This document shows, one piece after another, positions 30,768-63,225 of a DNA stretch of 64,000 nt; within the stretch, counting starts at the first letter, position 1, and each line of letters starts with the position of its first letter. This DNA comes from Acidobacteriota bacterium. Its GTDB lineage: Bacteria > Acidobacteriota > UBA6911 > RPQK01 > JAJDTT01. The position numbers and the translations under genes are program-made. A model generated the notes under the pieces. That model did no database searches. It saw only the letters and a program-made list of their open reading frames with translations, and was not told where the DNA came from. The stretch spans positions 280,825 through 344,824 of the forward strand of contig CBDCUP010000019.1 in NCBI GenBank assembly GCA_965222655.1. The letters are read 5' to 3'.

Positions 30768-30775
30768 ACTTTCTC

Positions 30776-30850: not shown

Positions 30851-30852
30851 TC

Positions 30853-30927: not shown

Positions 30928-30939
30928 TCAAAGAAAAAC

Positions 30940-31018: not shown

Positions 31019-31053
31019 CAAAAATCGTTGGCTGGGGCTCAGGGACTCAGCAA

Positions 31054-37156: not shown

Positions 37157-37208
37157 GGGTGAATACCTCGGTTGAGAGTTTTCAATCCTCTTGACAGAGC
37201 CGTCCTAA

Positions 37209-37383
37209 CCCGCATTTCTCATCGCTGGTCTACTACGTCGCCGCAATCATCCGCCCTGGCTGCGTTACGCTCTCTCGGCCTCCTCGACGTACTGCACGAG
37301 TACGACTGCGGGGGCCTCGGTCGCAAGCCTTGCCAGGACGGCCCTTGCGGCGCCTCGCTACGACAAGCGATGAGAAATCCGGG
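37209..37383. repeat. 175-bp MITE-like element with imperfect terminal inverted repeats, copy 1 (copy 2 at 59157-59331)
   Basis: About 97% identical to 59157-59331; ends cccgcatttctcatcgctggtctac / gctacgacaagcgatgagaaatccggg are mutually reverse-complementary; internal hairpins cgtactgcacgagtacg and gcaagccttgc. Confidence 0.8.
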
Positions 37384-37531
37384 TTAACGCAGTGCAACCT
37401 GGGCTGCATCTAAACGATGCACTCCCACACCATTGATCTCCCCTTGTACCCGCTTTGTTTAGTAAGTCTGTCTACACTCGCCGCCCCAGCTGCGGGGTGT
37501 AGGACTTAGATGTCTAAGTAGTTGTTCTAAA

Positions 37532-38044
37532 TCAGAGTCCTGCGCAGGTGCTCTTGACGCCGCCAATTTCCAAGGCATCTGATCCGAAATCGATACGACG
37601 GATAATCCCCTCTTTGTCGACGACGAGCGTCGTTCTCTTGGAGATGCCCCGATCCGGATCATACACTCCATAGGCTTGACTGACCGTCCGGTGGGGGAAA
37701 TCACTCAGAAGAGGGAATTCGACCCCGAGCTTCTCGCGATACGCCTTGAGCGAGAATCTAGCATCAACGCTGATTCCGAATATTTGCGTATCCTTGTCGT
37801 TGAAGTATGCGATATCAGACTGATATCGCTGAAGTTCCGTCGTTCAGCCTCCGGTAAACGCGAGCACGAAAAAGGCAAGAACAACATTCTTCTTGCCTCC
37901 GAAGTCACTCAGACGTACCTTGTTTCCGTCCTGGTCGGATAGTTCGAAGTCAGGCGCTACATCACCCACGTTGAGGTTACTTGATTGGGCTTGAGCGAAC
38001 CCGATCATGAAACAACAAACGACAAGAGTTCTGAGCAGCTTCAT
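37532..38044 (-). CDS. secreted AhpC/TSA-family peroxiredoxin, candidate selenoprotein (in-frame TGA at 37844-37846 at the catalytic Cys position)
   Basis: Read-through gives [19 protein letters not shown]...[103 protein letters not shown]...; the FTGGUTTE site corresponds to Prx FTxVCPTE; the ORF track stops at the TGA. Confidence 0.65.
37809..37829 (-). promoter_or_regulatory. SECIS-like hairpin 14 nt downstream of the in-frame UGA
   Basis: mRNA UGA-ACGACGGAACUUCA-GCGAUAUCA-GUC-UGAUAUCGC: 9-bp perfect stem with GU in the apical loop. Confidence 0.5.
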
Positions 38045-38065
38045 ACTCTTGATTCTAGGACGTTG

Positions 38066-38323
38066 ATGCCCAGGAAGCAAATCAATTTCTACACACGACC
38101 CGGTTGCCACCTGTGCGAGGATGCTCTCAAAGTATTGCAAGATCTCCGAAGGGAATTCAAGTTCAGTCTCACAATCGTGGACATCTCTGATTCAGAGGAC
38201 CTGGTCGCCCGCTATGGCAACGACATCCCGGTAGCAGAGCTCGAGGGCCGGAGAATTTTCAAGCACCGAACGGATCGACGAGTTATGCGACGAGTTTTGA
38301 GCCGGCTTTGTGCAGCGGAGTAG
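38066..38323 (+). CDS. glutaredoxin-like (thioredoxin-fold, CxxC) small protein
   Basis: [13 protein letters not shown]...IVDI..D..L..RYGN.IPV pattern; ORF track extends to a TTG at 37985. Confidence 0.6.
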
Positions 38324-38495
38324 TAGGCTATAGTGACTACCAGATTCGCAGGCTGAGTTCTCATTGGATCGGCATCGCGTTTTTCAAGAAATGAAAACCT
38401 TCAACCTGCATCTTGTAACCTGCTAACCTGTAACCTATGACATTCATCCCCGAATCTTTCCCCGTGAGAACCTCGAAGGCCGAGCAGGAAACAAC

Positions 38496-39038
38496 ATGAA
38501 GATCTACACGGGTAGAGGTGACACTGGTTTGACCTCACTTTTCAGCGGGCAGCGTGTTGGAAAGGACGCCCTTCGGGTCGAGGCCTATGGAACGCTAGAC
38601 GAGCTGAATTCGATTCTGGGGAGTGCGCTGGCTTTCAGCCAGAATGCTGAAGTGGCCAGTATCCTCAAGGATCTTCAAGACAAGCTCTTTCGCTCCGGAT
38701 CCGATCTGGCTACGATTACCGGTGAGAGGGTTCGACGTCTGGGCGAGCCGGATTGGAGGGGACTCGAGACTACGATTGATCGGTTGGAGTCCGATCTTCC
38801 CCCCTTGAAGAACTTCATACTCCCCGGCGGTTCGCCCGCTGCATCCTTGATTCAGGTCGGACGCTCGGTATGCCGGCGAGCGGAGCGGTTGGCCGTGAGC
38901 CTGGCCAACCAGGAAGGCGACGTCAATCCGCATCTCATCGTTTATTTGAATCGGCTTTCCGATCTGCTTTTTGTTCTGGGACGCTATGAAAATCTCAAAG
39001 AGGGTGGGCAGGAGACCATCTGGAAGGAGGAAGCTTGA
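38496..39038 (+). CDS. ATP:cob(I)alamin adenosyltransferase, PduO-type
   Basis: MKIYTGRGDTGLTSLFSGQRV...AYGTLDELNS signature. Confidence 0.8.
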   Translation: MKIYTGRGDTGLTSLFSGQRVGKDALRVEAYGTLDELNSILGSALAFSQNAEVASILKDLQDKLFRSGSDLATITGERVRRLGEPDWRGLETTIDRLESDLPPLKNFILPGGSPAASLIQVGRSVCRRAERLAVSLANQEGDVNPHLIVYLNRLSDLLFVLGRYENLKEGGQETIWKEEA

Positions 39039-40015
39039 AGACTTTGGGTCTCGAGGCGTGCCCAAAGTGTAGAGGCTCGGGCTGGATTGTCCAGGCCGAT
39101 GCCGAACGAGACCAGGTGGCCCCCTGTCCCGAGTGCAGCTCCAAGCTTCGGATGCAGCGACTCCTGGCGAATGCCAAGATCCCGCCTCGCTACCTTTCCC
39201 GCGGCTTCGACGTCTACTCGATTCACCACCCCCTGCAGGGGCGTGCTCTCCGCCGGGCGATTGAATACGTGGAGGCTTTTCCAGCCGTCCCGCGAGGACT
39301 TCTCTTCCTGGGCCCCTGTGGAGTAGGGAAGACTCACCTGGCGGTTGCGATTCTGAAGGCGGTTGTCCAGGCCAAAGAGGTTTCGGCAAGGTTCGTGGAC
39401 GAAGCGGAATTGCTGCGGCGGCTGATGTATTCCTATGGCCCCGATTCTCCGGAGACAGAAAGGGAGCTCTTACTGCCTCTTCTTTCGGCCGATCTCGTGG
39501 TCTGGGACGACCTCGGCACGGGCAGACCCACCGAGTGGGTGGCGGAGACGATCCGGACGGTCTTGAATCACCGATACACCTACAACAAGCAGACTCTTCT
39601 AACCAGTAACTGGCCCGTGGAGACTCAAGTAAGAAACCGCCTGGGAAAGGAATCGCTGAAGGATCAAACTCTCGCTGAACGGATTGGCTTGAGGTTGTAT
39701 TCCCGCGTTATGGAGATGTGTGAACTGTTGCAAGTGGACGGACCCGATGCACGGACTGAAATTCACAAGGCTGGGTTGGATTTCCAGCAGGATCACAAGC
39801 AGGGCTCAACGATGAGCCTGCCCCCGGGAATTCTGCGCTGCACCAAGTGCGAATCACGCCAAGTCAGGCCGGTTGACTACTCTCGCCCTCGAGGTTCGGG
39901 AGAAGGCGAACATGTTGAAGTTTCCTGTCTGTGCGAGGACTGCGACGAGCACTTCCTGGCCCGCTTCTTCTCGCAGGGTTCTCGGGTTGAGTATCCCGGC
40001 ATCGCGGCATCCTAG
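39035..40015 (+). CDS. DnaC/IstB-family AAA+ ATPase flanked by N- and C-terminal zinc-ribbon motifs
   Basis: Walker A GPCGVGKTHLAVAI, Walker B LVVWDDLG; N-terminal CPKC...CPEC and C-terminal CTKC...CLCEDC; start overlaps the PduO stop by 4 bp. Confidence 0.6.
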   Translation: MKTLGLEACPKCRGSGWIVQADAERDQVAPCPECSSKLRMQRLLANAKIPPRYLSRGFDVYSIHHPLQGRALRRAIEYVEAFPAVPRGLLFLGPCGVGKTHLAVAILKAVVQAKEVSARFVDEAELLRRLMYSYGPDSPETERELLLPLLSADLVVWDDLGTGRPTEWVAETIRTVLNHRYTYNKQTLLTSNWPVETQVRNRLGKESLKDQTLAERIGLRLYSRVMEMCELLQVDGPDARTEIHKAGLDFQQDHKQGSTMSLPPGILRCTKCESRQVRPVDYSRPRGSGEGEHVEVSCLCEDCDEHFLARFFSQGSRVEYPGIAAS

Positions 40016-40283
40016 GCCGAGATCGAATCGAACCGTATAAAAATGCGGTTTGGCTTGTCCAAGTAGACTTTTTCGATCCAGATGGATCTCTGTAGGGGGG
40101 GTGGGGGCCCCGATACGTGTGCGTTGTTTTTTTTCAGACCCTGCGCATAGAATCGGGCAGGTTCGGCATAGGCTCATAGAGTCGAGGTAGGAATTGTGTG
40201 CGTGAGTATTTTCGGGCTGAGACCAGGCGCTTGTGCCTGATTTGATGTGGATCTTGGCTCCCGTAATCTGTAAGGAGGATTAG

Positions 40284-41516
40284 ATGTTCCAGTTTAGGTT
40301 TTCGCTGGTGCTTGGTCTGGTGACCTTGTTTTTCACGCCCGGTTACGGAGCGATCAAGAGGCTCGACGATCCGAACGCCTTTTCAGGTGCTTCCGTGACG
40401 ATCGACTTCGAAGGTCAGATCGAGGGAGCTGATGCCCGTAATCTGTTCGGCTCATGGCATTTGGCTTTCAAGGCGCCAGATCCCGACACCGTCCGGATCC
40501 GGAGCGAGTTCGTCCTCTTTTCGAACAATGTCATCAGAAACGAGGCCTTGGAGGGCTCTTCATCCGGCAGGCCTCTTATTATCAATCTTGGCCACCCATT
40601 CAAACGGGTTGGGTTCGTGCTCGGGAACGGCGGGCCCGGAGTGAGCGCCACGGCGCGGGCCTTTGATGAACAGGGAAACCTCCTGGGTGCCGAGATCGTA
40701 GATGATCTGATGGAGACCACTTTTCTTGGATTGGAGGATGAGGGAACCGCAGGCATCGCGAAGGTCACCATAGACTACGGAGCCTCTGATGCCGAGGAGC
40801 AGATCGACGATTTCATTTTCGACTATGGCTCTTCCCACGTGTTCAACACCTATGTTGCTCAGGTGGCCGACGCCCTTCAACTACAGACGGTGCTTGTCGT
40901 CTCGAATCTGAGTGCCACCACCGCTGATGGCGAACTGAGACTCTTTGACACGACCGGTGCTCCCCTTTCTCTCGACCTGAGTGGTACCACTGCCAGCGTC
41001 TTTCCATTTTCGATTGAGCCCTTCGGATCCGCCACTTTCAATACCACCGGGCTTGGTCCTGATGTGTCGGTTGGGTACGCGTGCATCGAGGCCAATGCGC
41101 CTGTGGGGTCCACCGCCATCTTCAGGATCTTGGATGCCGAAGGGAATGCGACCTCGGAAGCGGGAATCGGAGGATCCACCGGCACGTATATTTCAGTGGG
41201 TGTAGTGCAGAGGCGTATCCAGGGCGACGTCAACAGCGGCATTGCTGCCGTCAATATCTCCCCGGACATGAACGCCAGCAGCATTCGGCTGCTCAATGGC
41301 GCTGGGGTCGAGATCGCCTCAGACCTCGATTTTCTGGACCTGGAAGGAGGCCAGCAGAAGGCTCGCTTCTTGAACGAGATCTTCCCGGGCCTCCCGGCTG
41401 AAGACTTGGATGGTACACTGGTAATCACGAGTGACAAACCACTGGTGGTCGCAATTCTTCGCACCGCCGCCGGTCTTGTTATCTCGAGTCTGCCCGTAGG
41501 GAGTACACAGAAATAG
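40284..41516 (+). CDS. hypothetical secreted protein
   Basis: Signal peptide MFQFRFSLVLGLVTLFFTPGYGA; 410 aa. Confidence 0.45.
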   Translation: MFQFRFSLVLGLVTLFFTPGYGAIKRLDDPNAFSGASVTIDFEGQIEGADARNLFGSWHLAFKAPDPDTVRIRSEFVLFSNNVIRNEALEGSSSGRPLIINLGHPFKRVGFVLGNGGPGVSATARAFDEQGNLLGAEIVDDLMETTFLGLEDEGTAGIAKVTIDYGASDAEEQIDDFIFDYGSSHVFNTYVAQVADALQLQTVLVVSNLSATTADGELRLFDTTGAPLSLDLSGTTASVFPFSIEPFGSATFNTTGLGPDVSVGYACIEANAPVGSTAIFRILDAEGNATSEAGIGGSTGTYISVGVVQRRIQGDVNSGIAAVNISPDMNASSIRLLNGAGVEIASDLDFLDLEGGQQKARFLNEIFPGLPAEDLDGTLVITSDKPLVVAILRTAAGLVISSLPVGSTQK

Positions 41517-41529
41517 CGCTTCGAGTGCC

Positions 41530-41955
41530 TTGTGGCCTGTACTTTTACGATGGGCTAGCCGGCTTGCTCCCCTAGGTATCAAGGTGATGAAACTCAGTGC
41601 TCCCTTCCATATGTTTCGTCGAGGGTATCGATCTCATCTGAAGCTGGGGGTCCTGGTGGCTTGGGGATTCATGGCCCTGGCCCAAGCAGACGAATGGGTT
41701 GGAGTCTGGCGGATTACAGCCGTCGACGGCAGTCCCCTGGGAGTCACCTACCACCTTGCAATTTCAGGCGCAGAGGAGCGTAGTATTCGAGTCTTTGATG
41801 AGACTGGAAGACCCCTGATCGTACTGGACACGCATTTTGACGAGGCAGAACTGAATCTGGTGAGCACTCGAGTCGCCAGTAGGCCTCTACCCCTGCGCCT
41901 GCAGGCGACACGCACAGAGGGTCGACTTAACAGTCTCGGAATTTCAATCAAGTGA
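41530..41955 (+). CDS. hypothetical protein
   Basis: 141-aa ORF with hydrophobic N-terminus; weak support. Confidence 0.3.
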   Translation: MWPVLLRWASRLAPLGIKVMKLSAPFHMFRRGYRSHLKLGVLVAWGFMALAQADEWVGVWRITAVDGSPLGVTYHLAISGAEERSIRVFDETGRPLIVLDTHFDEAELNLVSTRVASRPLPLRLQATRTEGRLNSLGISIK

Positions 41956-42052
41956 GCTGTTCTCTGAGACCGCCCTTTCGTCACAGCCGGGGTGTCCCGA
42001 AACAGCCTTTTACGGCCTTGGCCGTCGGCACGAAGTGCCTACCTACTTAAAG
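41925..42052. repeat. about 125-bp inverted repeat, copy 2
   Basis: Reverse complement of 28108-28230. Confidence 0.85.
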
Positions 42053-43059
42053 GTGAGTGGACTCATATCCACCCCCAATACCCTACGGGAGGACAGCTAA
42101 CCGGTGTTAAAGTGAGTGCACTCTCAGGCGATTGGCAGCCCTTTAAAAAGTTGCGTAAACGTCACCAGGGCCCGTTCCTGGATGCTACCACGCTGCTCTG
42201 TGAAAGTGAAAAGTGGGAGACTTTCGAGGACTTTTCTGCATTCTGGGATCAGGAGGTAGAATCGAGTTTCTATTTGTTGCTCCAGGACCTGCTCTATAGC
42301 GATCGAGTAACACCGGAGAAGAAGGAGAAAGAGCTCAGGCGTATCTTTGCTCAGGTGAAGCGGCCGGGGGCGAAACTTGATTTCGTCCTGCATTTTCCGG
42401 AGCTGGTCGAGAGTGCGATCCGGGAGGTTACTGCTCAGTTCCCCGACTGGCAGCCGAGTTTCCACATCGTCAGCACCGTGGGCCCTTCCGCAGTCACAAC
42501 GAAGATCCTCTGGAGCCGACCTCTGGGCCCCGATGGAGGTTACAAGTGCTGCTCTGAAGAAGTCGTTGAGGTGAGGGACGAAGTGTATCTTCTCTTCGAT
42601 CCCTTCAGGTTGGCATCGAGGCCGGAGATTGCCCCGATCGTGGTGAAAAGACAGCTGTTTACGGCTCTTCTTTGGCCCATCACCAATCAGTCGATGGGCG
42701 CTGGCGACTCCCCCTTGAGCATGGAGATCTTTCGCCGCGGACTGGCGCTCCATCTTGCCTTGCAAAATGCAAGTCCAGATTATGCTTCTTTCCCGGGCGA
42801 AGGGTTCCCTGGCGACGCGAGTCGGCTCCAACGAGACCTTTACAAGGCCACCTCGTTAGTTTGGAAAAATTATTTTCCACACAGTCTCAACTTCGCACAG
42901 GGTCTGGGATACCGCTGGGGGCGCCATTTCGCCCGTTCCCTCACACGCCGTTTCAGCACCAGCCAGTTGGCGATGTTGCAAGAGGGCCAGATCAGGAAGG
43001 AATGGAGTCGATATCTGACTCGTGCGTTTCGAGAGAAGGTGACACCCCGCGGCCCTTGA
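41992..43059 (+). CDS. hypothetical protein
   Basis: 355-aa ORF; its start lies inside repeat copy 2. Confidence 0.4.
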   Translation: MSRNSLLRPWPSARSAYLLKGEWTHIHPQYPTGGQLTGVKVSALSGDWQPFKKLRKRHQGPFLDATTLLCESEKWETFEDFSAFWDQEVESSFYLLLQDLLYSDRVTPEKKEKELRRIFAQVKRPGAKLDFVLHFPELVESAIREVTAQFPDWQPSFHIVSTVGPSAVTTKILWSRPLGPDGGYKCCSEEVVEVRDEVYLLFDPFRLASRPEIAPIVVKRQLFTALLWPITNQSMGAGDSPLSMEIFRRGLALHLALQNASPDYASFPGEGFPGDASRLQRDLYKATSLVWKNYFPHSLNFAQGLGYRWGRHFARSLTRRFSTSQLAMLQEGQIRKEWSRYLTRAFREKVTPRGP

Positions 43060-43146
43060 GGATACGCCTGTTGGCACGACCTGATTGACCGTGATGGCGG
43101 TGGTTTCCACAGACAATTCTCCTTATCCCGAACAGATCACCAAACC

Positions 43147-44262
43147 ATGACACTCGAACCCGTTCAACTCACTCAAGAGCTTGTCGATATCAAGTCCGTC
43201 AGCCGCTGGAGCAATCTCGAGATCTCAGCTCTTGTCGAAGAACGCATGGTCCAAAATGGGTTCGAGACCGAGCGGCTCGAGTATGTGGACGAAAACGGTG
43301 AAAAGAAGGCAAACATCGTTGGCAGGAAGGGGGAGGGTACAGGAGGACTGGCATTCTTCTCCCACACAGATACCGTACCCGGCCAGGAGCAGGATTGGGA
43401 TGCCTTTTCCTCGACGGTGAAGGATGGACGGATCATCGGACGTGGTAGCTGCGACATGAAGGGGCCACTGGCGGCTACTATGGTTGCGGCTGCCCAGTGT
43501 GATGCGTCGCGTCTGAAGCGGCCGGTCTTGGTGATGGCCACAGCGGATGAAGAGGTGGGAGGCCGGGGAGTCAAGCAGGTAGTGAGCACTTCAGAACTCC
43601 TGCGGACCGCCACGCCCGCGTTTGGCGTGGTGGCAGAGCCCACCAGCCTCATCCCCGTCTACGCGCATAAAGGGGGAGCGCAAGTCTTCGTCACCGCTCA
43701 CGGAAAGGCTGCCCATACCAGCATGGACCTGGGGATCTCAGCGAACTTCATCATTGCCCCTTTTCTCGCCGAGATGGCCGATCTGGCCAAGAAGGTCAGA
43801 ATCGATGAGCGATTCATGAACCACGATTTCAAGCCTCCCACGAATGGCTTCAATATGGTGCTGGACGACGGGGGTACGAAACAGAACGTCACTGCTGCCA
43901 AGACCGTCTGCCAGGTTTGTTTCAGGCCCATGCCCGGAGACAAGAGCCAGGAGTTGCTGGAACTCATTACCGAGAAGGCAAAGCAACACGGACTGGAAGT
44001 CGAATCACGCATGGGTATGCCCTACTACATCTCTCCGGATGCACCGATCGTTCGGCTGGCCTGTGAAGTCACTGGAGTCAAGGAGCCGCAAACCGTGCCA
44101 TTCGGAACCGATGCCGTCAGAATAGGAGATGCTCTTGATCTGGTGGTTCTGGGACCCGGCGATATTGCCCAGGCTCACACAGTCGGCGAGTGGATCGCGG
44201 TGGATAATCTTCACGAAGCCGTCAGAGTGTACACGGACATGATCGAGCACGCTTGCATGTGA
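43147..44262 (+). CDS. M20 family metallopeptidase (ArgE/DapE-like deacylase)
   Basis: FFSHTDTVPG, GRGSCDMKG, ATADEEVGG metal-binding motifs. Confidence 0.8.
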   Translation: MTLEPVQLTQELVDIKSVSRWSNLEISALVEERMVQNGFETERLEYVDENGEKKANIVGRKGEGTGGLAFFSHTDTVPGQEQDWDAFSSTVKDGRIIGRGSCDMKGPLAATMVAAAQCDASRLKRPVLVMATADEEVGGRGVKQVVSTSELLRTATPAFGVVAEPTSLIPVYAHKGGAQVFVTAHGKAAHTSMDLGISANFIIAPFLAEMADLAKKVRIDERFMNHDFKPPTNGFNMVLDDGGTKQNVTAAKTVCQVCFRPMPGDKSQELLELITEKAKQHGLEVESRMGMPYYISPDAPIVRLACEVTGVKEPQTVPFGTDAVRIGDALDLVVLGPGDIAQAHTVGEWIAVDNLHEAVRVYTDMIEHACM

Positions 44263-44359
44263 CCTCAGCCTGCTTCCTCGACGCCGTCGTGCTCGCAACC
44301 GACCCAACCACCTTCTGCAATGCGACTTCTTACCAGCTGCGGGCGGAGGAAACACTGAG

Positions 44360-45310
44360 ATGGGAATTACTTCAATCGGCCTCGCTCTTTCTCTCCTTCT
44401 GTCCTTCGCACCCTTCCTGATGGCCGGAAGCGTCAAATCGTGGGAGGACTTGAAGCCGTATCAGGGCCGCGACTCCTATGTCCGGATCGATGGCGAGCTC
44501 AGACAGAAAATGTTTCTCGCCGTCTTCGATGAGATTCAGCGGCTCTATGGCGGAACAGTAGATGGTCAGCTTCACGAGGAGGTTGTTCTCCTATGCCCCC
44601 AGACGGCTGATTTCCTCTACTCCGAATTCACTCCGACCAGGGTCAGCTACCAGAAAGGGTCCCGACCCGTCCTTGAAGCCAAAGCGGGAGACTTGACCCG
44701 TGGTTTGGACGCTGACAGGCAGAAGGTTCTGGCCCTGCTGCGCTTCGTCAGGGATCTCTACAAAGGTTCCCCGGACAGCGCGCAGCCACCTCTTCAGGGG
44801 GGAACCGAAGAAGAGCTGATACAGTCCAATCCCCGGCTCTGTGAATCTCAGTCCCGCGTCCTGGCGGCGTTATGCCAGGTAGCGGGTTTCCCTTCCCGCA
44901 GGGTGGGACACTTCATTGGCGGCCATGCCGTCACCGAGGTCTTTTTCGAAGACAAGTGGGCCTACGTCGACATTCGTGGAATCTATTTTCTCAAGCCGGA
45001 CGGCAGGTTCGCCTCGACCTGGGAGGTCTGGCAGAACCCGGAATGGATCGAATCACAGAGCGAGGAAGTCAAGCGGGATCGACTCCCGGATGGCGACCCC
45101 CGAATCGACGACATCTATCGCTGGCAGGACACACCCGGGAAATACTTTCATCCCAGCGAGGTGACCACCATCATGAACTACGACCTCAGTCAGGTCGATC
45201 GCTATACCTACAGGAAAGTCGATCCTCGGAAGCTGGGGACACCTGAGGACGAACTCAAGCGCATCAGGCAGAAGCTCGGATCCTGGAGGCAGCTGATCTT
45301 TTCGAAGTAG
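44360..45310 (+). CDS. transglutaminase-like cysteine protease superfamily protein, secreted
   Basis: Signal peptide; RLCESQSRVLAALCQVAGFPSRRVGHF...GHAVTEV...D Cys-His-Asp arrangement. Confidence 0.55.
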   Translation: MGITSIGLALSLLLSFAPFLMAGSVKSWEDLKPYQGRDSYVRIDGELRQKMFLAVFDEIQRLYGGTVDGQLHEEVVLLCPQTADFLYSEFTPTRVSYQKGSRPVLEAKAGDLTRGLDADRQKVLALLRFVRDLYKGSPDSAQPPLQGGTEEELIQSNPRLCESQSRVLAALCQVAGFPSRRVGHFIGGHAVTEVFFEDKWAYVDIRGIYFLKPDGRFASTWEVWQNPEWIESQSEEVKRDRLPDGDPRIDDIYRWQDTPGKYFHPSEVTTIMNYDLSQVDRYTYRKVDPRKLGTPEDELKRIRQKLGSWRQLIFSK

Positions 45311-45374
45311 GGAAGGTCTCCGGATGGTTCCACCCCCAGGAAGCCCTGTCCCATTCCAGAAAGAAGCTTCGGTT

Positions 45375-45431
45375 GTAGGACGGGCACTCTTGCCCGTCAA
45401 GAACGGCGACGGGCAAGAGTGCCCGTCCTAC
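45375..45431. repeat. REP-like palindromic element, family 1, copy 2
   Basis: gtaggacgggcactcttgcccgtc-aagaacggc-gacgggcaagagtgcccgtcctac, perfect 24-bp arms. Confidence 0.85.
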
Positions 45432-45519
45432 AAGCGGTCAGAGCTCGATTCGATGAACTCTTGCACGATCTCCTAGCTGATGACGTTTCACCCTAGTCCC
45501 AACCCAATCAGGGCATCCT

Positions 45520-46626: not shown

Positions 46627-46657
46627 CATGACCGGGCTGCTCACTCCTACGTGGCTT

Positions 46658-46729
46658 CGGTCTCCAGGCCGAAGTGTTCTTGTCGAGCCTGGCGGCTCGA
46701 CCGACGGCGGCCTGGAGACCGCCACCACG
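46658..46729. repeat. nested-palindrome REP-like element, family 2
   Basis: cggtctccaggccgaag...tcgagcc-tggcg-gctcga...ggcggcctggagaccgccaccacg. Confidence 0.7.
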
Positions 46730-46745
46730 AAACCCTACCTCGAGA

Positions 46746-48743: not shown

Positions 48744-48771
48744 TCGGTTTAGTCTCCTTCGGATCCAATCC

Positions 48772-51512: not shown

Positions 51513-51624
51513 AACGAGCTCTCGCCAGAGAGCGATGGCCTTCCTCCAGGGTCAATCAACCCAGACTCTAAAGGCCAAGCTCGACCGAAGCAACCGTTCG
51601 CTCCTTTTGCCCTCGCCCCCGCTC

Positions 51625-51695
51625 CTGCCCTTGCCTCTGCCTTTGCCTTTGCCTTTGCCTTTGCCTTTGCCTTTGCCTCTGATTTTGATTTTTCA
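51625..51695. repeat. hexanucleotide microsatellite (CCTTTG/CCTCTG), about 8 units
   Basis: cccttgcctctgcctttgcctttgcctttgcctttgcctttgcctttgcctctgattttgatttt in the divergent promoter region between 49854-51512 and 51820-55059. Confidence 0.85.
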
Positions 51696-51819
51696 TCCAA
51701 GGTTCCACGGGCAAAGGCAAAGGCAAGTGTCAGGATGAGGGACGCACGCAGGACCCAGTCTTTTTGACCTTGCTTTAGCCCCGGGTTACAATCGGTCGCA
51801 AAGGAGCTAGCGACCCTGA

Positions 51820-54800
51820 TTGCTTTCAAAACCCGGATACCGAAATCCCAGAGAGATCATGGCTGTGCGATCTGAATCTCGCTCTCACTTACCTTCTATT
51901 CTCGGCGTTGTTCTGTGCATGATGCTCTGCGGAGCGTCTGCCGTCGCCGCCTCCAAGCTTGATGAATCGACTGTCGAGTTCAATCGGGATATCAGGCCCA
52001 TCCTCTCGGACAAATGCTATGCCTGTCATGGACCCGATGAGAACAAGCGGCTGACGAAGCTGCGATTTGACACCGAGGAGGGCGCGCTTGCGGATCTAGG
52101 AGGCCGCTTCGCGATCGTACGCGGGAGTCCCGGGCAGAGCGGGATTGTCAGCAGAATCACCACCGACATCGAAGCACAGAAAATGCCACCGGTGTACTCC
52201 GGAAAGGAGCTCACCGAACATCAAGTTGATCTGCTCCGGCGCTGGGTCTCTCAGGGTGCCAAGTGGCAGAGGCACTGGGCGTTCATACCGCCCGGACGGC
52301 CAGAGCTGCCCCACCTGGAGGACAGCAGGTGGGCTCGGATCGGACTGGACCATTTCATTCTCCAGCGGCTCGAAAAAGAAGGCCTGGACCCTTCACCCGA
52401 AGCGCACCTTGCCACCCAGATCCGCCGGCTGACACTCGATCTGACTGGCCTCCCGCCGACCCCCGCCGAAGTGGATGCCTTTCTCACTGACAGCTCTCCA
52501 GATGCTTACGAGAAGGTAGTCGATCGTCTGCTCCAATCCCCGCGCTACGCCGAGAAGATGGCGAGCCGCTGGCTGGATGCGGCCCGATATGCCGATACCA
52601 ACGGCTATCAGACGGATGCCGAGCGAAGCATGTGGAGGTGGCGCGATTGGGTCATTGATGCCTTCGACAAGAACATGCCCTTCGATCAGTTCACGATTGA
52701 GCAGATCGCCGGAGACATGCTGCCAAACGCTACTCTCGAGCAGAAGATCGCCAGCGGTTTCAATCGCAACCATCGCGGCAATGGGGAAGGCGGAATCGTT
52801 CCCGAAGAGTACTCCGTCGAATATGTAGTCGATCGGGTAGAGACGACTTCAACCGTGTGGTTGGGGCTGACGATGGGATGCGCCCGCTGCCACGATCACA
52901 AGTACGATCCCATCAAACAGAAGGATTTCTACCGGGTCTTTGCCTACTTCAACAACGTTCCCGAGCGGGGACGCGCCTTCAAGTTCGGCAATTCCGCGCC
53001 CTTCATCCCGGCGCCCACGCCGAGCCAGCTGCAGCAGCTGGGAAAGCTGGAGGCGAAACTGGCCGGGGCCGAGGAGCAGTTCGAAGCACTAGGTTCCGAG
53101 ATCGAGGAGTCGAAGCGGATCTGGGAAGCCTCTCTGGCCCAGTCCACGATCCTGGATTGGTCCTTCGACCGGGACCTGCTTCTTCGCTACCCGCTCGACG
53201 GCTCGCTGGCCGGTCAACCCAGCGGTTTCAAGGATAAGAAACCAGTCCAGGTCCGGCTGCTCGACGGCATGCCCCATTTCGTATCCGGGCGGCTGGGGGC
53301 TGCTGCCAGCTTCGACGGAAAGCGGTTTCTGGAAGCTGGAGATGTTGCGGAACTGGGCTTTTTCGACCGATTCTCTCTTTCCGCCTGGGTTTACCCGACA
53401 GCCCCGGACGGCCCCATCCTGGGACGGAATTTCGATACCCCGGAGGTTGGCGATCATGGGTTCAAGGGCTACGGCCTGTATCTGAGGGAGGGCAAGGTAC
53501 AACTGAATCTGGTGACTCGTTGGTTGGACGACTCCCTTCGAATCGAGACGGCGGAGCCGCTCGAATTGAACCGCTGGCACCACGTCGCTGCGACCTATGA
53601 TGGCACCCGTGTCGCAGAAGGTACCAGGATCTACGTCAACGGTCAGGCCAGCGCCCTCAACGTGAGGCTGAACCTGCTCAACCAGGATTTCCGTCTCCCC
53701 AACTCCTTCCGGATCGGCGCTGCGGGTGCTCGTCGCTTCTCCGGTCTAATCGATGAGGTTCGGGTCTACACAGAAGTCTTGTCCCCTCAGGAAGTCGCCG
53801 TGATCTCGCTGGCCGACAGCGTGAATGAGATCGCCGCCCTGCCTCCCGAAGGCCGCAGTCAGTCCCAGACTGACAAGCTTCGGTGGTGCTTCCTCGACCA
53901 GTACGCCGCCCCAAACATCCACAAGGCCTGGCAGCAGTTGCAGGATCTGCGCCGGCAGAAGCAGGAGATGGTCCGCGGCTTCCCCACCGTTATGGTGATG
54001 CATGAGGGAAAGACCCGCGATACCTTTGTGCTGGTCCGCGGCGCCTACGATAGACCCGGGGAAAAGGTGCTTCCCGGGGTGCCCTCTTTCCTTCCCCAAC
54101 TGCAGGAAGGTTGGGCCAACAACCGGATCGGATTGGCCCGCTGGCTGGTGGCTCCCGAGAATCCACTCACCGCACGGGTGACGGTGAACCGTTTCTGGCA
54201 GACGTATTTCGGCGTCGGGCTGGTCAAGACCGCCGAGGATTTTGGTTCGCAGGGTGAATGGCCGCTGCATCTGGAACTTCTGGACTGGCTCGCCACCGAG
54301 TTTGTTTCCAGCGGCTGGGACGTCAAGGCACTTCAGAAAACGATCGTGATGAGCGCGACCTACCGACAGTCCTCGAAGGTGCGGCCCGAGCTGCTGAAAC
54401 GAGATCCGGAGAATCGGTTGCTGGCTCGGGGTCCGCGTTTCCGGTTGCCGGCAGAAGTCGTGCGTGACCAGGCGCTGGCGGTTTCGGGTTTGCTCGTAGA
54501 GCAGGTTGGCGGACCCTCCGTCAAGCCTTATCAGCCGGCTGGACTCTGGTCGGATTTAGCTGGAGGCGAGGATTACCAGAGAGGCGAAGGCAGCGATCTC
54601 TACCGCCGAAGCCTCTACACCTTCTGGAAACGGACCTCGGCCCCCCCCTCCATGACCACTTTTGACTCCGGCCAGCGTGAGACTTGCTCGGTTAGGCAGG
54701 AACGGACCAACACCCCTCTTCAGGCCCTCAACCTGATGAACGACGTAACTTATGTGGAAGCATCCCGGGTGCTGGCTCAGCGGATGATGGAGGAGGGCGG

Positions 54801-55059
54801 TAAGACGCCAGCGGAGCGGATTGCCTTTGCCTACAAGGTGGTCACGGCCCGGACACCCCAGTCCAGCGAGGGCGGGATTCTACTCGAGGGTTTCCAGCAC
54901 TACTTGCGAGATTATCGGGACGATCGCGGGGCCGCCCTGAAGCTGGTTTCCCAGGGCGAGCATCCTCGCAATCTGGCTCTGGACGTCGCCGAGCTGGCCT
55001 CCTATGCCACGGTTGCCAGCCTGATCCTCAATCTTGACCGGGCCATTACCAAGGAGTGA
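51820..55059 (+). CDS. PSCyt1/DUF1549/DUF1553 domain protein (planctomycete-type cytochrome c domain; LamG-like middle domain)
   Basis: Signal peptide; CYACHG heme motif; characteristic DUF1549 and DUF1553 stretches (WLDAARYADTNGY..., RLLARGPRFRLPAEVVRDQALAVSGLL...). Confidence 0.85.
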   Translation: MLSKPGYRNPREIMAVRSESRSHLPSILGVVLCMMLCGASAVAASKLDESTVEFNRDIRPILSDKCYACHGPDENKRLTKLRFDTEEGALADLGGRFAIVRGSPGQSGIVSRITTDIEAQKMPPVYSGKELTEHQVDLLRRWVSQGAKWQRHWAFIPPGRPELPHLEDSRWARIGLDHFILQRLEKEGLDPSPEAHLATQIRRLTLDLTGLPPTPAEVDAFLTDSSPDAYEKVVDRLLQSPRYAEKMASRWLDAARYADTNGYQTDAERSMWRWRDWVIDAFDKNMPFDQFTIEQIAGDMLPNATLEQKIASGFNRNHRGNGEGGIVPEEYSVEYVVDRVETTSTVWLGLTMGCARCHDHKYDPIKQKDFYRVFAYFNNVPERGRAFKFGNSAPFIPAPTPSQLQQLGKLEAKLAGAEEQFEALGSEIEESKRIWEASLAQSTILDWSFDRDLLLRYPLDGSLAGQPSGFKDKKPVQVRLLDGMPHFVSGRLGAAASFDGKRFLEAGDVAELGFFDRFSLSAWVYPTAPDGPILGRNFDTPEVGDHGFKGYGLYLREGKVQLNLVTRWLDDSLRIETAEPLELNRWHHVAATYDGTRVAEGTRIYVNGQASALNVRLNLLNQDFRLPNSFRIGAAGARRFSGLIDEVRVYTEVLSPQEVAVISLADSVNEIAALPPEGRSQSQTDKLRWCFLDQYAAPNIHKAWQQLQDLRRQKQEMVRGFPTVMVMHEGKTRDTFVLVRGAYDRPGEKVLPGVPSFLPQLQEGWANNRIGLARWLVAPENPLTARVTVNRFWQTYFGVGLVKTAEDFGSQGEWPLHLELLDWLATEFVSSGWDVKALQKTIVMSATYRQSSKVRPELLKRDPENRLLARGPRFRLPAEVVRDQALAVSGLLVEQVGGPSVKPYQPAGLWSDLAGGEDYQRGEGSDLYRRSLYTFWKRTSAPPSMTTFDSGQRETCSVRQERTNTPLQALNLMNDVTYVEASRVLAQRMMEEGGKTPAERIAFAYKVVTARTPQSSEGGILLEGFQHYLRDYRDDRGAALKLVSQGEHPRNLALDVAELASYATVASLILNLDRAITKE

Positions 55060-55062
55060 TTC

Positions 55063-56535
55063 ATGGATCCCAGGCTTGATCGCCGATTGTCGATGACTCG
55101 CCGCCATTTCTTCGGATTGGGGAGCACTGGCATTGGTACCGCGGCACTGGCTACTCTTCTGGATCGCAGTCTGCTGGGTAGGACCGGACTGAAGGGTCCG
55201 GGTGATGGACCCGCTCAAGGCGGGTTGTCGGGGCTCCCGCATTTCGCTCCGAAAGCCAAGCGGATCATCTATCTGTTTCAGTCGGGTGCTCCTTCCCAGA
55301 TGGACTTGTTCGACTACAAACCGAAACTGGAGGCTCTGGCCGGTACGGAGCTGCCCGACTCGATTCGCAAGGGGCAGCGTTTGACCGGGATGACGGCCAC
55401 CCAATCCAGTTTTCCGGTGGCTCCATCGGTATTCGAGTTCGCCCAGCACGGCGCGTCCGGTGCCTGGGTCAGCGAGTTGATGCCGCATACGGCCAAGATT
55501 GCCGATGACCTCTCGTTCATCAAATCGATGCACACGGAGGCCATCAACCATGATCCTGCGATCACGTTTTTCCAGACCGGGGCCCAACTGGCAGGACGAC
55601 CCAGTATCGGCTCCTGGCTTTCCTACGGCCTAGGCAGCGAGAACCGGGATCTTCCGAGCTTCGTGGTTATGGTCTCCAGTGGCGAGGACGGTGCTGGACA
55701 ACCACTCTACGATCGACTCTGGGGAAGCGGGTTTCTCCCCACCCGGTATCAGGGGGTCAAGTTCCGCTCGATCGGGGACCCGGTGCTCTATCTATCGAAT
55801 CCGCCAGGACTGAGCAGACCCAACCGGCGCCGATTCCTGGACGATTTGAACCGGCTCAACCAGCTGCAGCTGGAGGAGTTTGGGGATCCGGAGATCGCGA
55901 CCCGGATCGAGCAGTATGAGATGGCCTATCGAATGCAGACGTCCGTCCCCGATCTAACAGACCTTTCAGGCGAACCGGAGCACGTATTCAAGCTCTACGG
56001 CCCCGAGGCAAAGAAGCCCGGGACATATGCGTACAACTGTTTGCTGGCCCGTCGTCTGACGGAACGCGGGGTCCGCTTTATTCAGCTTTTCCACCGCGGT
56101 TGGGACCAGCACACCACGCTGCCCGAGGAAATCAAGGTCCAGTGCAAAGACACCGATCAAGCTTCGGCGGCCCTGGTTCAGGATCTGAAGGAGCGGGGTC
56201 TGTTGGAGGACACGCTGGTAGTCTGGGGAGGCGAGTTTGGCAGGACGGTCTATTCACAAGGCAAGCTGACCGCGACCGATTATGGACGCGATCACCATCC
56301 CCGCTGCTTTTCCATCTGGCTGGCAGGCGGAGGCATCAAACCCGGTGTCATCTACGGTGAGACTGACGACTACGGCTACAACATCACGCGCGATCCAGTG
56401 CATGTCCACGATCTGCACGCGACCCTGCTCCACTGCCTGGGCATCGATCACACCAAGCTGACCTTCAAATACCAGGGGCGAGATTTCCGCCTGACCGACA
56501 TCCACGGAAAACTGGTAAAGAAGCTCCTAGCGTAG
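55063..56535 (+). CDS. DUF1501 (sulfatase-like) protein with Tat signal
   Basis: [20 protein letters not shown] twin-arginine signal; the DUF1501 pair partner of the DUF1553 protein, 3 bp downstream. Confidence 0.85.
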
Positions 56536-56549
56536 CGTCCCTTTCTTTG

Positions 56550-56712
56550 CCCGTGCCCGTGCCCGACTTTATGTTCTTGCTGAGTTGACCACGAGACCCC
56601 GGTTTCGCCACCATTTGCCATGAACGTTCCACGCCAGAGAAAGACGAAGGGATTGTGGAAACACGCCCCGCGCACGGGCACGGGTAAGGGCAAAGGCAAG
56701 GGAGGAAAGGGG
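56550..56712. repeat. inverted CCCGTG/GGCAAA simple-repeat pair between convergent genes
   Basis: ctttgcccgtgcccgtgcccg (56545-56566) is reverse-complementary to cgcacgggcacgggtaagggcaaaggcaagg (56671-56702). Confidence 0.7.
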
Positions 56713-56754
56713 TCGAAGGACGTGCGACGTGCAGACGTTCCGACGTGCGACGAC

Positions 56755-58158
56755 CTATCGTCCCAACGCCGCCGCCATCTCTTCAACAGTAGTGAACTTG
56801 ACTCTGGGCCTACCCGACTGGAGCCCCTTTTCCCGCTCGATCTCGTCTATCCTCTGCCAATCCGCGTAGGAGAAGTAGTCGGGACGGTTACGTCGAATCA
56901 GTGTCTCGGTATCGCTGCTCCCCTGGCGCGAGGGCTTTAACGTCAACCCCGCCTTCAGGTCTTCAAGCATGCAGGACACGGTTTCCAGGGCGTCCGGTTT
57001 GTTGGTGCCGATGACTCCGTTGGGCCCGCGCTTGATCCAGCCTGCCGTGTATTCACCTACGATAGGCTTCCGAGTCTCCGGCTCCACAACTCGACCCTTC
57101 TCGTTGAGGATTACACCCCATTTCGGATTGAAGGGAATGTCTGAGAGCGGCAGGCCCTTGTAGCCAATGGATCTGAACACCAGGCCAACCTCGAGTTCCT
57201 CAAACCTGTCAGTAGCTCTGGGGCGGAGCGTTCCCATGTCGGTGGAATAGAGTTCGTTCTGGACCAGTCGCATAGCCTTCACCTGACCTGAGCTGCCCAG
57301 GATCTCAACCGGAGAAACCAGGAAGCGAAGGTGGATGGTGCGCGACTGGCCAGCCCGCTCGCGGGAGGCAATCTTCTCCAGAATCTCAATTCTCTTCAAT
57401 GCGACCCGATCGTTCTCTCGCTCTAACGCCTGCTGGCTCAAGGAGTCGGGGGTTGCCTCCTCCGGAGGAATAGTGACGTGGACATTATCCAACTCCCCCA
57501 ATTCCTTGATCTCAGGATTGGTAAAGGCCGCCTGTGCCGGCCCTCGTCGTCCCAGCATGTAGACTTCTCGCACCCGGCTTTGGCGGAGCTGCTCGAGGGC
57601 ATAATCCGCAATGTCCGTCTGCGCTAGATCCTCGGGAGTGCGACTCAGAATCCGGATCACGTCAATAGCCACGTTGCCCAGACCGACTACTGCAGCCCGC
57701 TCTTGGGACAAGTCGAACTCATAGTCGCGAAAGTCGGGGTGGCCGTTGTACCAGGCCACGAAATCGGTAGCTGAATAGCTACCCTTCAGGTTTTCGCCGG
57801 GTATGCCGAGGTTGCGGTCTGATGGGGCGCCCGTAGTGTAGATGATCTGGTGATAGTGGTCTCGCAGCTGGGCCCGGGTAATATCACGTCCCAACCCAAC
57901 CTGGCCAAAGAATTTGAAGCCGGGATTGGCTGCAGTCCGGTCGAAAGTCCTGGTGACCGCCTTGATCCGCTGATGATCGGGAGCGACGCCATTTCGAACC
58001 AGACCGAAAGGCGTCGGAAGACGATCGAACATGTCGATCTCGACGATGATACCGTCCTGCCGGAACAGATGCTCAGCGGCATAGAAACCCGCTGGTCCCG
58101 CACCAACAATCGCGACCCGCAGCGGGCAGTCGCTGGTACCTGGCTTGGCCATCTTCAA
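56755..58158 (-). CDS. FprA-type FAD-dependent ferredoxin-NADP+ reductase-like oxidoreductase
   Basis: VAIVGAGPAGFYAA FAD-binding GxGxxG, second Rossmann motif VVGLGNVAIDV; about 460 aa adrenodoxin-reductase-like layout. Confidence 0.65.
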   Translation of the reverse strand: MKMAKPGTSDCPLRVAIVGAGPAGFYAAEHLFRQDGIIVEIDMFDRLPTPFGLVRNGVAPDHQRIKAVTRTFDRTAANPGFKFFGQVGLGRDITRAQLRDHYHQIIYTTGAPSDRNLGIPGENLKGSYSATDFVAWYNGHPDFRDYEFDLSQERAAVVGLGNVAIDVIRILSRTPEDLAQTDIADYALEQLRQSRVREVYMLGRRGPAQAAFTNPEIKELGELDNVHVTIPPEEATPDSLSQQALERENDRVALKRIEILEKIASRERAGQSRTIHLRFLVSPVEILGSSGQVKAMRLVQNELYSTDMGTLRPRATDRFEELEVGLVFRSIGYKGLPLSDIPFNPKWGVILNEKGRVVEPETRKPIVGEYTAGWIKRGPNGVIGTNKPDALETVSCMLEDLKAGLTLKPSRQGSSDTETLIRRNRPDYFSYADWQRIDEIEREKGLQSGRPRVKFTTVEEMAAALGR

Positions 58159-58201
58159 TGACTTCCTCTACTGGAGAGATGTGGGGGGCAGGGTGCAGGC
58201 T

Positions 58202-58630
58202 TCAAACCGTGGAAAGCCGGGTCTGAAGAGATTCGACCTGGCCTTCATACTGGTCCCGCTGTGTCCGGACGACATCCATGATCGAGATGATGCCAACGAG
58301 CTCGCCGTTGTCGACGACGGGAAGATGGCGAAATCTCTTTTCAGTCATGGTATTAGCCACAAGCCTCGCGTCATCGGTGGGGCTGGTTATGATCACTTCC
58401 TGAGTCATGAGACTGTCTACCCGCCGGTCGAACACCGCCTCGTCCCTGGCCGCTCCGCGAACGATATCTCGCTCGGAAAGGATGCCCATGGGATGATTGG
58501 TCTCGTCTACTACAACCAGGGCGCCGATATTATGTCGGGCTAGTAAAGCGAGTGCCTCCCTGATCGAATCGTCGGGGCGGACGACGACGACGCTCGAGCA
58601 TTTGGTAGCAAGGATTCTCTCGACGTTCAT
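58202..58630 (-). CDS. CBS-domain pair protein
   Basis: Two CBS repeats (HNIGALVVVDE..., RHLPVVDNGELVGIISIMDV). Confidence 0.75.
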   Translation of the reverse strand: MNVERILATKCSSVVVVRPDDSIREALALLARHNIGALVVVDETNHPMGILSERDIVRGAARDEAVFDRRVDSLMTQEVIITSPTDDARLVANTMTEKRFRHLPVVDNGELVGIISIMDVVRTQRDQYEGQVESLQTRLSTV

Positions 58631-58716
58631 CTTCGTGGAAGCTCCTTAATTCAATACCACCTCTGACCCCTCATCATACTGTTCGAGAGTCTTGGGTTCA
58701 ACGGCAGCGGCCGGTT

Positions 58717-59139
58717 CTACTCGTCTTCCGGATCGACGCGAGAGCGGACTTGTTTCATCTTGCTGCGGTGATGCTTGGCGCGGAGTCTTCGCTCGGCTGC
58801 GGCCCGGGTGGCGACCGTTGGGATCCGAGGAGTTGCTTGAGCAAGAGCCTCCGAGAGCAGGCGTACAAACCGCTCCTGAGCCTCCTGCCGGTTCAAGTGC
58901 TGACTGCGGTGACGCTGACAGACGACCCGAAGTATCCCGGCTCGACTGACCCGGGTGCTCAGACGGCTTCCTACTCGCCGCTTTTCCTCCTCGCTAAGGC
59001 TATCTGTCTTCTCCAGGTTGAACAAGAGCGTGACGCGAGTGCTGACCTTGTTGACGTGTTGGCCACCAGGCCCGCTGCTCCTGGCCGCGGTAAAGCGGAT
59101 CTCATCGTCCGGTATTGAAAGGCTACGGTTGATCTGGAC
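58717..59139 (-). CDS. arfB: peptidyl-tRNA hydrolase ArfB (alternative ribosome-rescue factor B)
   Basis: GGQHVNKVSTRV GGQ motif and basic C-terminal tail. Confidence 0.75.
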   Translation of the reverse strand, partial: VQINRSLSIPDDEIRFTAARSSGPGGQHVNKVSTRVTLLFNLEKTDSLSEEEKRRVGSRLSTRVSRAGILRVVCQRHRSQHLNRQEAQERFVRLLSEALAQATPRIPTVATRAAAERRLRAKHHRSKMKQVRSRVDPEDE

Positions 59140-59156
59140 CATTGGAAGTAGACTAT

Positions 59157-59331
59157 CCCGCATTTCTCATCGCTGGTCTACTGCGTCGCCGCAACCATCC
59201 GTCCTGGCTGCGTTACGCTCTCTCGGCCTCCTCGACGTACTGCACGAGTACGACTGCGGGGGCCTCGGTCGCAAGCCTTGCCAGGACGGCCCTTGCGGCG
59301 CCTCGCTACGACAAGCGATGAGAAATCCGGG
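59157..59331. repeat. 175-bp MITE-like element, copy 2
   Basis: See 37209-37383. Confidence 0.8.
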
Positions 59332-62795: not shown

Positions 62796-63225
62796 GTGAG
62801 CACAACTCCATTATGATCGGCAAGAGGAAAGCTGCAAGACGGAGATCTGAGCTATCGATGTTCACGCTTCGGCTCGAGGGTGATACGGGATCTCGGTTGT
62901 GAGCGTCTCTGCAACGTGGGAACCTCGAATCAGACCTTGCTGGAGGGGCTGCTGGCCTCCATCGACTGTCGTAGCGAGGCGCCGCAAGCGCTTTCCTTCA
63001 ATCCCAACCGCTTCCACAGCATTTGGAGATTGTCTGGGACAACGCAACAGTGAGCTGGGCAAACCAGGGCGTCCACATGCTGGACCTGGCCCTCTGGGGC
63101 ATCCAGAAGATGCGAGGCCAGAAGAAGTGTCTCCCCACACGGGTCTCCGGACAAGGGAGTATCTATTGGCTCGACGCGCGAGCCTGCGGGGGAGAAAACC
63201 GTTTCCCAGGCTCTCGTTCCCAGTC

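Follow-up and report, generated by a model that had tools for sequence, protein, structure and literature searches.

Correia/NEMIS in Neisseria, ERIC/IRU in the enterobacteria, RUP in Streptococcus pneumoniae, Nezha and Chunjie are all elements of 100-200 bp that have inverted repeats and form a hairpin over their whole length. Classical bacterial MITEs (miniature transposable elements with inverted repeats) such as these lie between or beside genes, are often co-transcribed with them, come in size variants that differ by insertions and deletions (indels), and have no transposase gene. Here we consider a 175-bp repeat that occurs twice in a 64-kb stretch of an Acidobacteriota genome (contig CBDCUP010000019.1 of assembly GCA_965222655.1, positions 280,825 to 344,824). 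We call this whole stretch the window, and refer to loci in other sequences by number (L001 and so on). We argue that the repeat is a non-coding, non-autonomous MITE that also exists in a 189-bp form, and we put the probability of this at about 0.92. It has discrete ends, inverted repeats and target-site duplications of the form YTAR. It is present at many sites in at least five species, one empty site has been found, and it has no coding capacity.

The two copies, A and B, lie in direct orientation exactly where the original prediction placed them. They align without gaps on the same strand and are identical at 172 of 175 positions. The 3 differences amount to 98.3% identity, so the near-identity that had been claimed stands, while the figure of about 97% was slightly low. 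Homology between the copies ends sharply on both sides, and the flanks are unrelated except for a 4-nt YTAR motif on each side. The termini are 20-nt inverted repeats, CCCGCATTTCTCATCGCTGG ... CAAGCGATGAGAAATCCGGG, which gives CCCG...CGGG with both ends beginning CCCG (written in short, the ends are CCCGCATTTCTCAT...ATGAGAAATSCGGG). The terminal 20-mer CCCGCATTTCTCATCGCTGG occurs 4 times in the window, once per end per copy, in inverted orientation and with 0 and 2 mismatches. Only 0.03 occurrences are expected by chance in shuffled sequence. The terminal repeats were quoted correctly in the original prediction, and the pairing runs on beyond them with bulges. The element is palindromic, though imperfectly, over its full length and makes one long bulged hairpin. 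Folded as RNA it has a predicted minimum free energy of -86.6 kcal/mol for the plus strand (z -5.9) and -100.5 kcal/mol for the minus strand (z -8.8), and the predicted DNA folding energy is -51.1 kcal/mol (z -7.1).

The element is not confined to the window. A scan with the terminal 20-mer, in which one genome per species was searched and both end variants were allowed, gave at least 64 loci. At least 60 of these are in five Acidobacteriota metagenome-assembled genomes (MAGs), each of which is the GTDB representative of a separate species. Among the matches listed, CBDCOR has 22 loci, CAUZIZ ('UBA6911') has 13, CBDCMS and JAKZYH have 11 each and CBDCLS has 3. The other 4 loci listed are isolated 20-mer matches, as many as chance alone would give. 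A BLASTN search with the element brought the count of full-length copies to 41, all of 173-189 bp and the two window copies included. Most are either 175 bp (22 copies) or 189 bp (16 copies), with 1 copy of 173 bp and 2 of 188 bp. There are also deletion derivatives of 129, 93 and 42 bp, as well as truncated copies. In the 41 copies homology stops at identical bases, and the flanks of the copies are unrelated. Four short-read scaffolds of the copy A and copy B loci break off 49-54 nt inside the element, as assemblies do at dispersed repeats. A 42-bp mini-palindrome made of two MITE ends was seen at the centre of a perfectly palindromic stretch on a short contig (L065:1-110), but here the assembly is probably at fault and the locus not real.

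In the alignment the 189-bp form is the 175-bp form plus a 14-bp mini-hairpin, TCGCCACGAGTGGT, flanked by short CTCG direct repeats. Both lengths are present in every subgroup defined by substitutions and in each of three genomes. At the copy A site two related metagenomic contigs, L085 and L090, have the 189-bp form where the window has the 175-bp form. Since both forms occur at this orthologous site, the 14-bp indel recurs or is exchanged in place and does not define a lineage. Probably slippage has removed the segment again and again, or gene conversion has exchanged it. In L085 the element end carries an 11-bp tandem duplication as well (L085:1650-2030 and L090:880-1260 compared to window 37209-37383).

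Copies from different species are 90-97% identical and copies within a genome are 93-96% identical, while orthologous coding DNA is only 80-87% identical between the window and the UBA6911 MAG. This points to either strong constraint on the sequence that is amplified or horizontal spread, although part of the cross-species identity could be ascertainment bias, as the scan demanded an exact 20-mer end. It also bears on the original prediction, which took the near-identity of A and B as a sign of recent mobility. That argument is weak when copies from other species are 90-97% identical anyway and the copy A site is shared with relatives.

The original prediction suggested a check for target-site duplications, and they are there. 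The flanks of 38 copies were tallied, with 3 copies that are disrupted by other insertion sequences set aside. An identical 4-mer is found on both sides in 29 of the 38, and the consensus is YTAR. The duplicated 4-mers are CTAG (12), TTAG (6), TTAA (6), CTAA (3), CTAT (1) and TTAC (1). Of the 9 copies without identical flanks, 8 differ by one base, and none of the 38 has a 5-nt duplication. Both flanks fit YTAR independently, for which we estimate a chance identity of about 28% from the base counts. A TA duplication with a longer inverted repeat is excluded by the direct, non-palindromic repeats TTAG, CTAA, TTAC and CTAT. In 9 of the 41 copies the duplication closes an open reading frame (ORF) of at least 100 codons. 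This is not a preference for the stop codons of genes, as the rate over all YTAR sites is 20%. YTAR contains TAA or TAG on both strands, so about 1 copy in 5 abuts a stop codon.

The best single piece of evidence is the empty site of copy B. This copy sits between an anti-sigma factor gene and arfB. In four relatives (L076-L079), whose anti-sigma protein is 86-88% identical to that of the window, the sigma/anti-sigma/arfB string is the same and its junction is 10 nt long. Their sequence reads GGAAGGTT-ATAG-TC(A/T)GTTTCCA-ATG, with a single ATAG. The window reads GGAAGGTT-ATAG-[175 bp]-ATAG-TCTACTTCCA-ATG. Since the empty site is exact, copy B is a lineage-specific insertion with a 4-bp duplication. 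It must be noted that exact-protein matches of the neighbouring genes only gave strains that also carry the element; the empty site came from more distant orthologues. Copy A is a different case. Its site is also filled in the related contigs L085, L090 and L071, so a lineage-specific insertion is shown for copy B only. Judged from which relatives share the site, copy A is older than copy B. L083 is without copy A and has a single TTAG there, but the sequence on one side is altered too, so this empty site is not clean. The spacer in L031 is too diverged from the window to show an empty site. The coordinates of the copies, their ends and the genes at copy B are collected in Table 1. The relic listed there lies in a stretch between two confidently read genes (61860-62795 and 63226-63999).

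Table 1. Coordinates in the window of the MITE copies, their ends and duplications, a relic, and the genes at copy B.
Feature	Position	Strand	Details
MITE copy A	37209..37383	+	175 bp; in the spacer from the peroxiredoxin gene (stop 37532) to the zinc-ribbon/ETF operon (ATG 37156)
Left terminal inverted repeat, copy A	37209..37228	+	CCCGCATTTCTCATCGCTGG; terminal 20-mer search
Right terminal inverted repeat, copy A	37364..37383	-	CCCGGATTTCTCATCGCTTG on the minus strand; terminal 20-mer search
Left target-site duplication, copy A	37205..37208	.	CTAA; 3 of 4 positions equal the right one
Right target-site duplication, copy A	37384..37387	.	TTAA
MITE copy B	59157..59331	+	175 bp; inside the anti-sigma/arfB junction; empty sites in relatives L076-L079
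Left terminal inverted repeat, copy B	59157..59176	+	terminal 20-mer search
Right terminal inverted repeat, copy B	59312..59331	-	terminal 20-mer search
Left target-site duplication, copy B	59153..59156	.	CTAT
Right target-site duplication, copy B	59332..59335	.	CTAT; first three bases are the anti-sigma TAG stop (minus strand)
38-nt relic of right arm	62960..62997	-	element positions 127-164, 87% identical; degenerate
arfB	58717..59142	-	RF-1 domain; ATG 59142
RskA-type anti-sigma factor gene	59332..60090	-	TAG stop 59332-59334, within the right duplication of copy B
Extracytoplasmic function (ECF) sigma factor gene	60083..60721	-	part of the gene string at copy B

The element does not code for anything. 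ORFs inside it have no Pfam match, are broken by indels of 14, 2, 46 and 82 bp among the copies, and run into the non-homologous flanks. The original prediction was right to treat them as artefacts. It was also right to call the repeat MITE-like, given the many copies in many genomes with discrete ends and target-site duplications. We infer both a transposase and the present-day mobility of the element. In the most plausible scheme a trans-acting DDE transposase encoded elsewhere would bind the 20-nt terminal repeats, open a YTAR target by cuts 4 nt apart on the two strands and join the element in, whether by cut-and-paste or by copy-and-paste. Gap repair would then leave the YTAR 4-mer at both sides.

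Several observations count against a MITE, and they should be stated together. The first is the lack of a partner. No parent with matching ends, a length of 0.6-3.5 kb and TA-centred flanks is present in the window plus a further ~477 kb of loci from genomes that carry the MITE (~541 kb together). A metagenome scan for the left repeat joined to a non-MITE interior gave three deletion derivatives and no parent; its filter, which called for a base other than that of the MITE at four invariant interior positions, is blind to any parent whose left arm agrees with that of the MITE over more than about 60 nt or that has a different terminal 20-mer. There were 0 matches to the element ends in viral contigs and only chance matches in plasmids. 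The second is that the source genome itself contributes 2 full copies and 1 relic in the 64-kb window, and the copy number rests on related species. The third is a mixed family signature, with CCC ends combined with a YTAR duplication of 4 bp. The co-resident element with a PF13701 transposase shares only CCC with the MITE ends and makes a 6-bp rather than a 4-bp duplication. It is the one PF13701 element in the DNA covered, and a different member of its family elsewhere could still be the partner. Lastly, the conservation across species and the substitutions that spare the stems could signal an added host function.

Some candidates for the parent could be rejected. Relaxed pairs of terminal repeats in the ~541 kb were just pairs of neighbouring MITEs. 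Solo terminal repeats that might have been the ends of a larger element proved to be truncated or interrupted copies (by an IS21-like element, an IS110-family element or a group II intron). The co-resident IS1380-like, IS110-family and IS21-like elements and the two IS4-like elements have no similarity to the MITE beyond CCC. Neither the ~541 kb nor the filtered metagenome scan yielded an IS5-family transposase or a full-length insertion sequence that matches.

It is still worth considering which family the transposase would belong to. The ends of the IS5 group start with GG or GA in the ISfinder family table. piggyBac has CCC...GGG ends and inserts at TTAA, and some members of IS1380 make 4-bp duplications. 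The MITE thus does not have the start expected of the IS5 group. A 4-bp duplication at YTAR is nevertheless the IS5 signature (PMC5009759). IS1380 is the prokaryotic outgroup of piggyBac (PMC10813416), and the left end of its member ISEcp1, CCTAGATTCTACGT, starts with CCTAG (PMC6061673). Duplications of 5 bp are described for IS1247 and ISEcp1 (PMC3281130, PMC6061673). In IS701 the duplication is exactly 4 bp in nearly all members (PMC2266710). Our tentative first choice is the IS5 group, which falls short of even odds. An IS1380-like transposase is possible and comes second. A family other than these two is rather doubtful.

The IS1380-family element of the window (PF13701) occupies 15521-17715, between duplications of ACTAGA at 15515-15520 and 17716-17721. 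Its ends are CCC...GGG and its 6-bp duplications are CTAG-centred (NCTAGN: ACTAGA, CCTAGT, GCTAGT). Intact copies of 1869 bp are found in L001, L011 and L020, and the copy in L049 is cut by the end of the locus.

The alternative that survives best is that the repeat is a structured non-coding RNA or a cis-regulatory hairpin (a terminator, attenuator, mRNA stabiliser or insulator) which is selected by the host, with its repetition being secondary. The hairpin is indeed highly stable when folded as RNA, the copies are more alike between species than orthologous coding DNA is, and copy B is probably transcribed if arfB and the anti-sigma gene are still co-transcribed. The substitution pattern also looks favourable. 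A minor allele shared by at least 3 copies is seen in 2 of 106 paired columns of the consensus fold versus 24 of 69 unpaired columns (Fisher p = 2e-9), but the comparison is partly circular since the consensus fold tends to leave variable columns unpaired. Where at least 8 copies share a minor allele, which is so in 10 columns, the column is always in a bulge or loop. The stems are clearly constrained. However, the same conservation is equally expected if only copies with intact hairpins amplify, and a compensatory change is seen in just 1 of the 53 pairs (columns 18/172, T-A to C-G in two copies).

The other tests of an RNA or terminator were negative. Rfam 15 has nothing relevant, either in the entire window at the gathering thresholds or near copy A with the cut-off relaxed to E <= 10, where the best chance match has E = 6.8. 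No match to a sigma-70-type promoter consensus was seen in or at either copy, and no terminator made of a stem and a T-run was seen in or at either copy on either strand. Past the stem the plus-strand flanks read CTATAACC or TTAACGCA, and the minus-strand flanks read ATAGTCTA or TTAGGACG. There is no significant orientation bias relative to the flanking genes (27 same, 41 opposite), although this used a crude gene call in which the surroundings of copy A were mis-called. The suggestion in the original prediction of a structured RNA, terminator or insulator finds no backing in any of this. The target-site duplications and the exact empty site show that the element spread by transposition. We therefore consider a host-selected RNA or hairpin with secondary repetition improbable. 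One could also combine the two ideas: the element would be the first described MITE of a piggyBac-like (IS1380-related) lineage that targets YTAR, and would have a host role as well, for example as an RNA hairpin that controls read-through into downstream genes such as arfB. The sparing of the stems and the 90-97% identity between species would then stem from this role and not just from recognition by the transposase. This too is unlikely, if perhaps a shade less so.

Another possibility is a palindrome of the REP/BIME or IS200/IS605 type that is moved as a single strand by a Y1 (HUH) transposase and not by a DDE enzyme. A long hairpin that is intergenic and abundant would fit this. IS110-family elements target repeats like the repetitive extragenic palindromes (REPs), and here IS110-family elements insert into the MITE at a fixed position. 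However, elements mobilised by Y1 enzymes (IS200/IS605, REP/RAYT) insert beside one short motif that does not vary, and they leave the target unduplicated. The element has variable 4-mers duplicated on both sides and true terminal inverted repeats. Its 175 bp is also far above the 20-40 bp that PMC3733652 gives for REPs. We regard mobilisation by a Y1 enzyme as very improbable. The weakest alternative is that two places in one genome merely share a segmental duplication or a tract of gene conversion. It agrees with there being only two full copies within the 64-kb window, but it is refuted by homology that ends exactly at the inverted repeats, by the many full copies that five other species have at unrelated sites, and by the 4-bp duplications and exact empty site; the original prediction had tied such an origin to there being just two copies with homology past 175 bp, and what we find is sharp ends and many copies in relatives.

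A MITE remains the best explanation, and the position of its two copies in the window relative to genes deserves attention. The genes adjoining both copies are all on the minus strand, so upstream means higher coordinates. The original prediction placed the copies downstream of a zinc-ribbon gene and arfB, but both copies are upstream (5') of those genes. Copy A is 52 nt (48 nt plus the 4-nt duplication) upstream of the ATG of the zinc-ribbon gene. That gene encodes a cysteine-rich protein of 147 aa without a Pfam match, and it overlaps etfB/etfA of the electron transfer flavoprotein (ETF). Copy A occupies the leader or promoter region of this operon. Copy B is directly downstream of the anti-sigma gene and 14 nt upstream of the ATG of arfB, which is 10 nt past the left-hand duplication. 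Both ORFs are intact. The original spacing of 10 nt from the anti-sigma stop to the start of arfB suggests that the two were co-transcribed. If they still are, copy B is probably within the transcript. The insertion put 179 nt (the 175-bp element and a 4-bp duplication), able to form a fold of about -100 kcal/mol, into what had been a 10-nt junction. Effects of the copies on the termination, processing or translation of their neighbours are possible from this arrangement, and would be a by-product of insertion.

The gene on the other side of copy A encodes a peroxiredoxin (AhpC/TSA; window 37532-38041, minus strand) and contains an in-frame TGA at 37844-37846. This TGA is exactly where the peroxidatic cysteine is expected (...AFTGG-TGA-TTELQ...). 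Gene calling splits the orthologues in L083 and L090 in two as well. The protein is most likely a peroxiredoxin with selenocysteine at this position, and the gene not a frameshifted pseudogene. Elsewhere in the window, ten minus-strand tRNA genes are clustered in 1.3 kb (29887-31127), with one more 2 kb away (33196-33268).

Other mobile elements are found inside copies of the MITE. An IS110-family element of about 1.57 kb is present at L013:3917-5488 and also in L044 and L032. Its transposase has 345 aa with PF01548 and PF02371. It sits between nt 2 and 3 of the left end of the MITE: CC|TGATCTCATAAGAAC...GTTCTTATAGA|CGCATTT. The outer flanks are TTAG+CC and CTAG+CC in L013 and L044. Since these differ, the MITE end is a specific target of the IS110-family element in the two loci. 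In L032 the inner junction alone is within the locus, and it is identical. The targeting of repeats is known for IS110/IS1111 elements. In other loci a truncated MITE abuts a repeat segment (L024:6783-8000, L050:6701-8000 and L034:1-1456), and in L024 and L034 the MITE breaks at element nt 105-107. The two repeat segments involved are adjacent in L049:545-3218, where by eye their translation resembles the halves of an IS21-like element. The IS110 and IS21-like cases together suggest that other insertion sequences are drawn to the MITE. In L023 a group II intron interrupts a MITE copy. This intron is related to two D1-D4 segments of group II introns in the window (21596-21993 and 25101-25498), which are inverted, 3.1 kb apart and 98% identical over 398 nt, with Rfam matches at 21769-21906 and 25188-25325.

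The window contains other small repeats too. A second MITE-like element of 308 bp (16767-17074) is unrelated to the first and interrupts the transposase gene of the IS1380-family copy. Its inverted ends are 25 nt long (GGTTCATCCGGTAAATGGGGAGGTG), its duplication measures 9 bp (CTTTTATGT), and L011 shows the uninterrupted sequence. A 121-nt repeat occurs at 28111-28231 and 41925-42045 in inverted orientation. The copies are 99% identical and have no obvious terminal inverted repeats. There is a TTAA just inside both ends, so the inserted unit is a few nt shorter. This repeat is absent from the orthologous site in L031, where GTCGAC-TGAA-AGG stands in place of the GTCGAC-TTAA-[element]-TTAA-AGG of the window. 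The repeat is thus a further small mobile element, but not one of the MITE's kind. Direct repeats that resemble the 3' part of a tRNA gene (GGAGAGATTCGAACTCCCGACC...) are found at 14909-14979/19938-20008 and at 14747-14826/24819-24898. Between them lie about 5 kb that include the IS1380-family element, possibly an integrated island whose attachment sites have been duplicated. A foldback at 2523-2743 has two 62-nt arms that are 97% complementary and 97 nt apart, and it may be a further small palindromic repeat.

The current understanding of MITEs is unchanged by this element, but it is of practical use. It accounts for spurious ORFs and for contig breaks in short-read assemblies of uncultured Acidobacteriota. 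The presence or absence of an insertion between lineages is a ready marker for strain typing. Copies A and B are natural experiments on polarity, the first in the leader of the zinc-ribbon/ETF operon and the second at the anti-sigma/arfB junction. The pairing of CCC...GGG ends with a 4-bp YTAR duplication is unusual, and the partner transposase, if found, would show which family is responsible.

The comparison with known systems can now be made. In architecture and behaviour the element matches the classical bacterial MITEs. Its sequence is unrelated to theirs, and it has a 4-bp YTAR duplication in place of the TA of Correia, ERIC and RUP. Its ends begin with CCC, unlike the GG or GA of IS5-group MITEs. 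With those it has in common a small size, inverted repeats, no ORF, an intergenic location, many copies and a 4-bp duplication at YTAR (PMC5009759). It resembles IS1380 and piggyBac in its CC(C)...(G)GG termini and short TA-centred duplication, and the co-resident PF13701 element with CCC...GGG ends at CTAG-centred sites is a further likeness to IS1380. However, the described members of IS1380 have no reported YTAR consensus, and the co-resident element duplicates 6 bp. IS701 has the 4-bp duplication (PMC2266710), but its published end consensus, ---YACT-Y--YR, does not fit CCCGCATTTCTCAT, and no partner was found. Like REP/BIME repeats the element is an abundant intergenic palindrome that attracts IS110-family insertions. 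Unlike them it is 175 bp long and has both terminal inverted repeats and a target duplication, whereas REPs, as described in PMC3733652, are 20-40 bp with a GTAG or CGTC head and no target duplication. A literature search gave no described MITE family in the Acidobacteriota, and a large MITE survey mentions this phylum solely for phage-borne elements. The element is new in its own sequence, in its host group and in its combination of ends and target, while its kind, the bacterial MITE, is already known.

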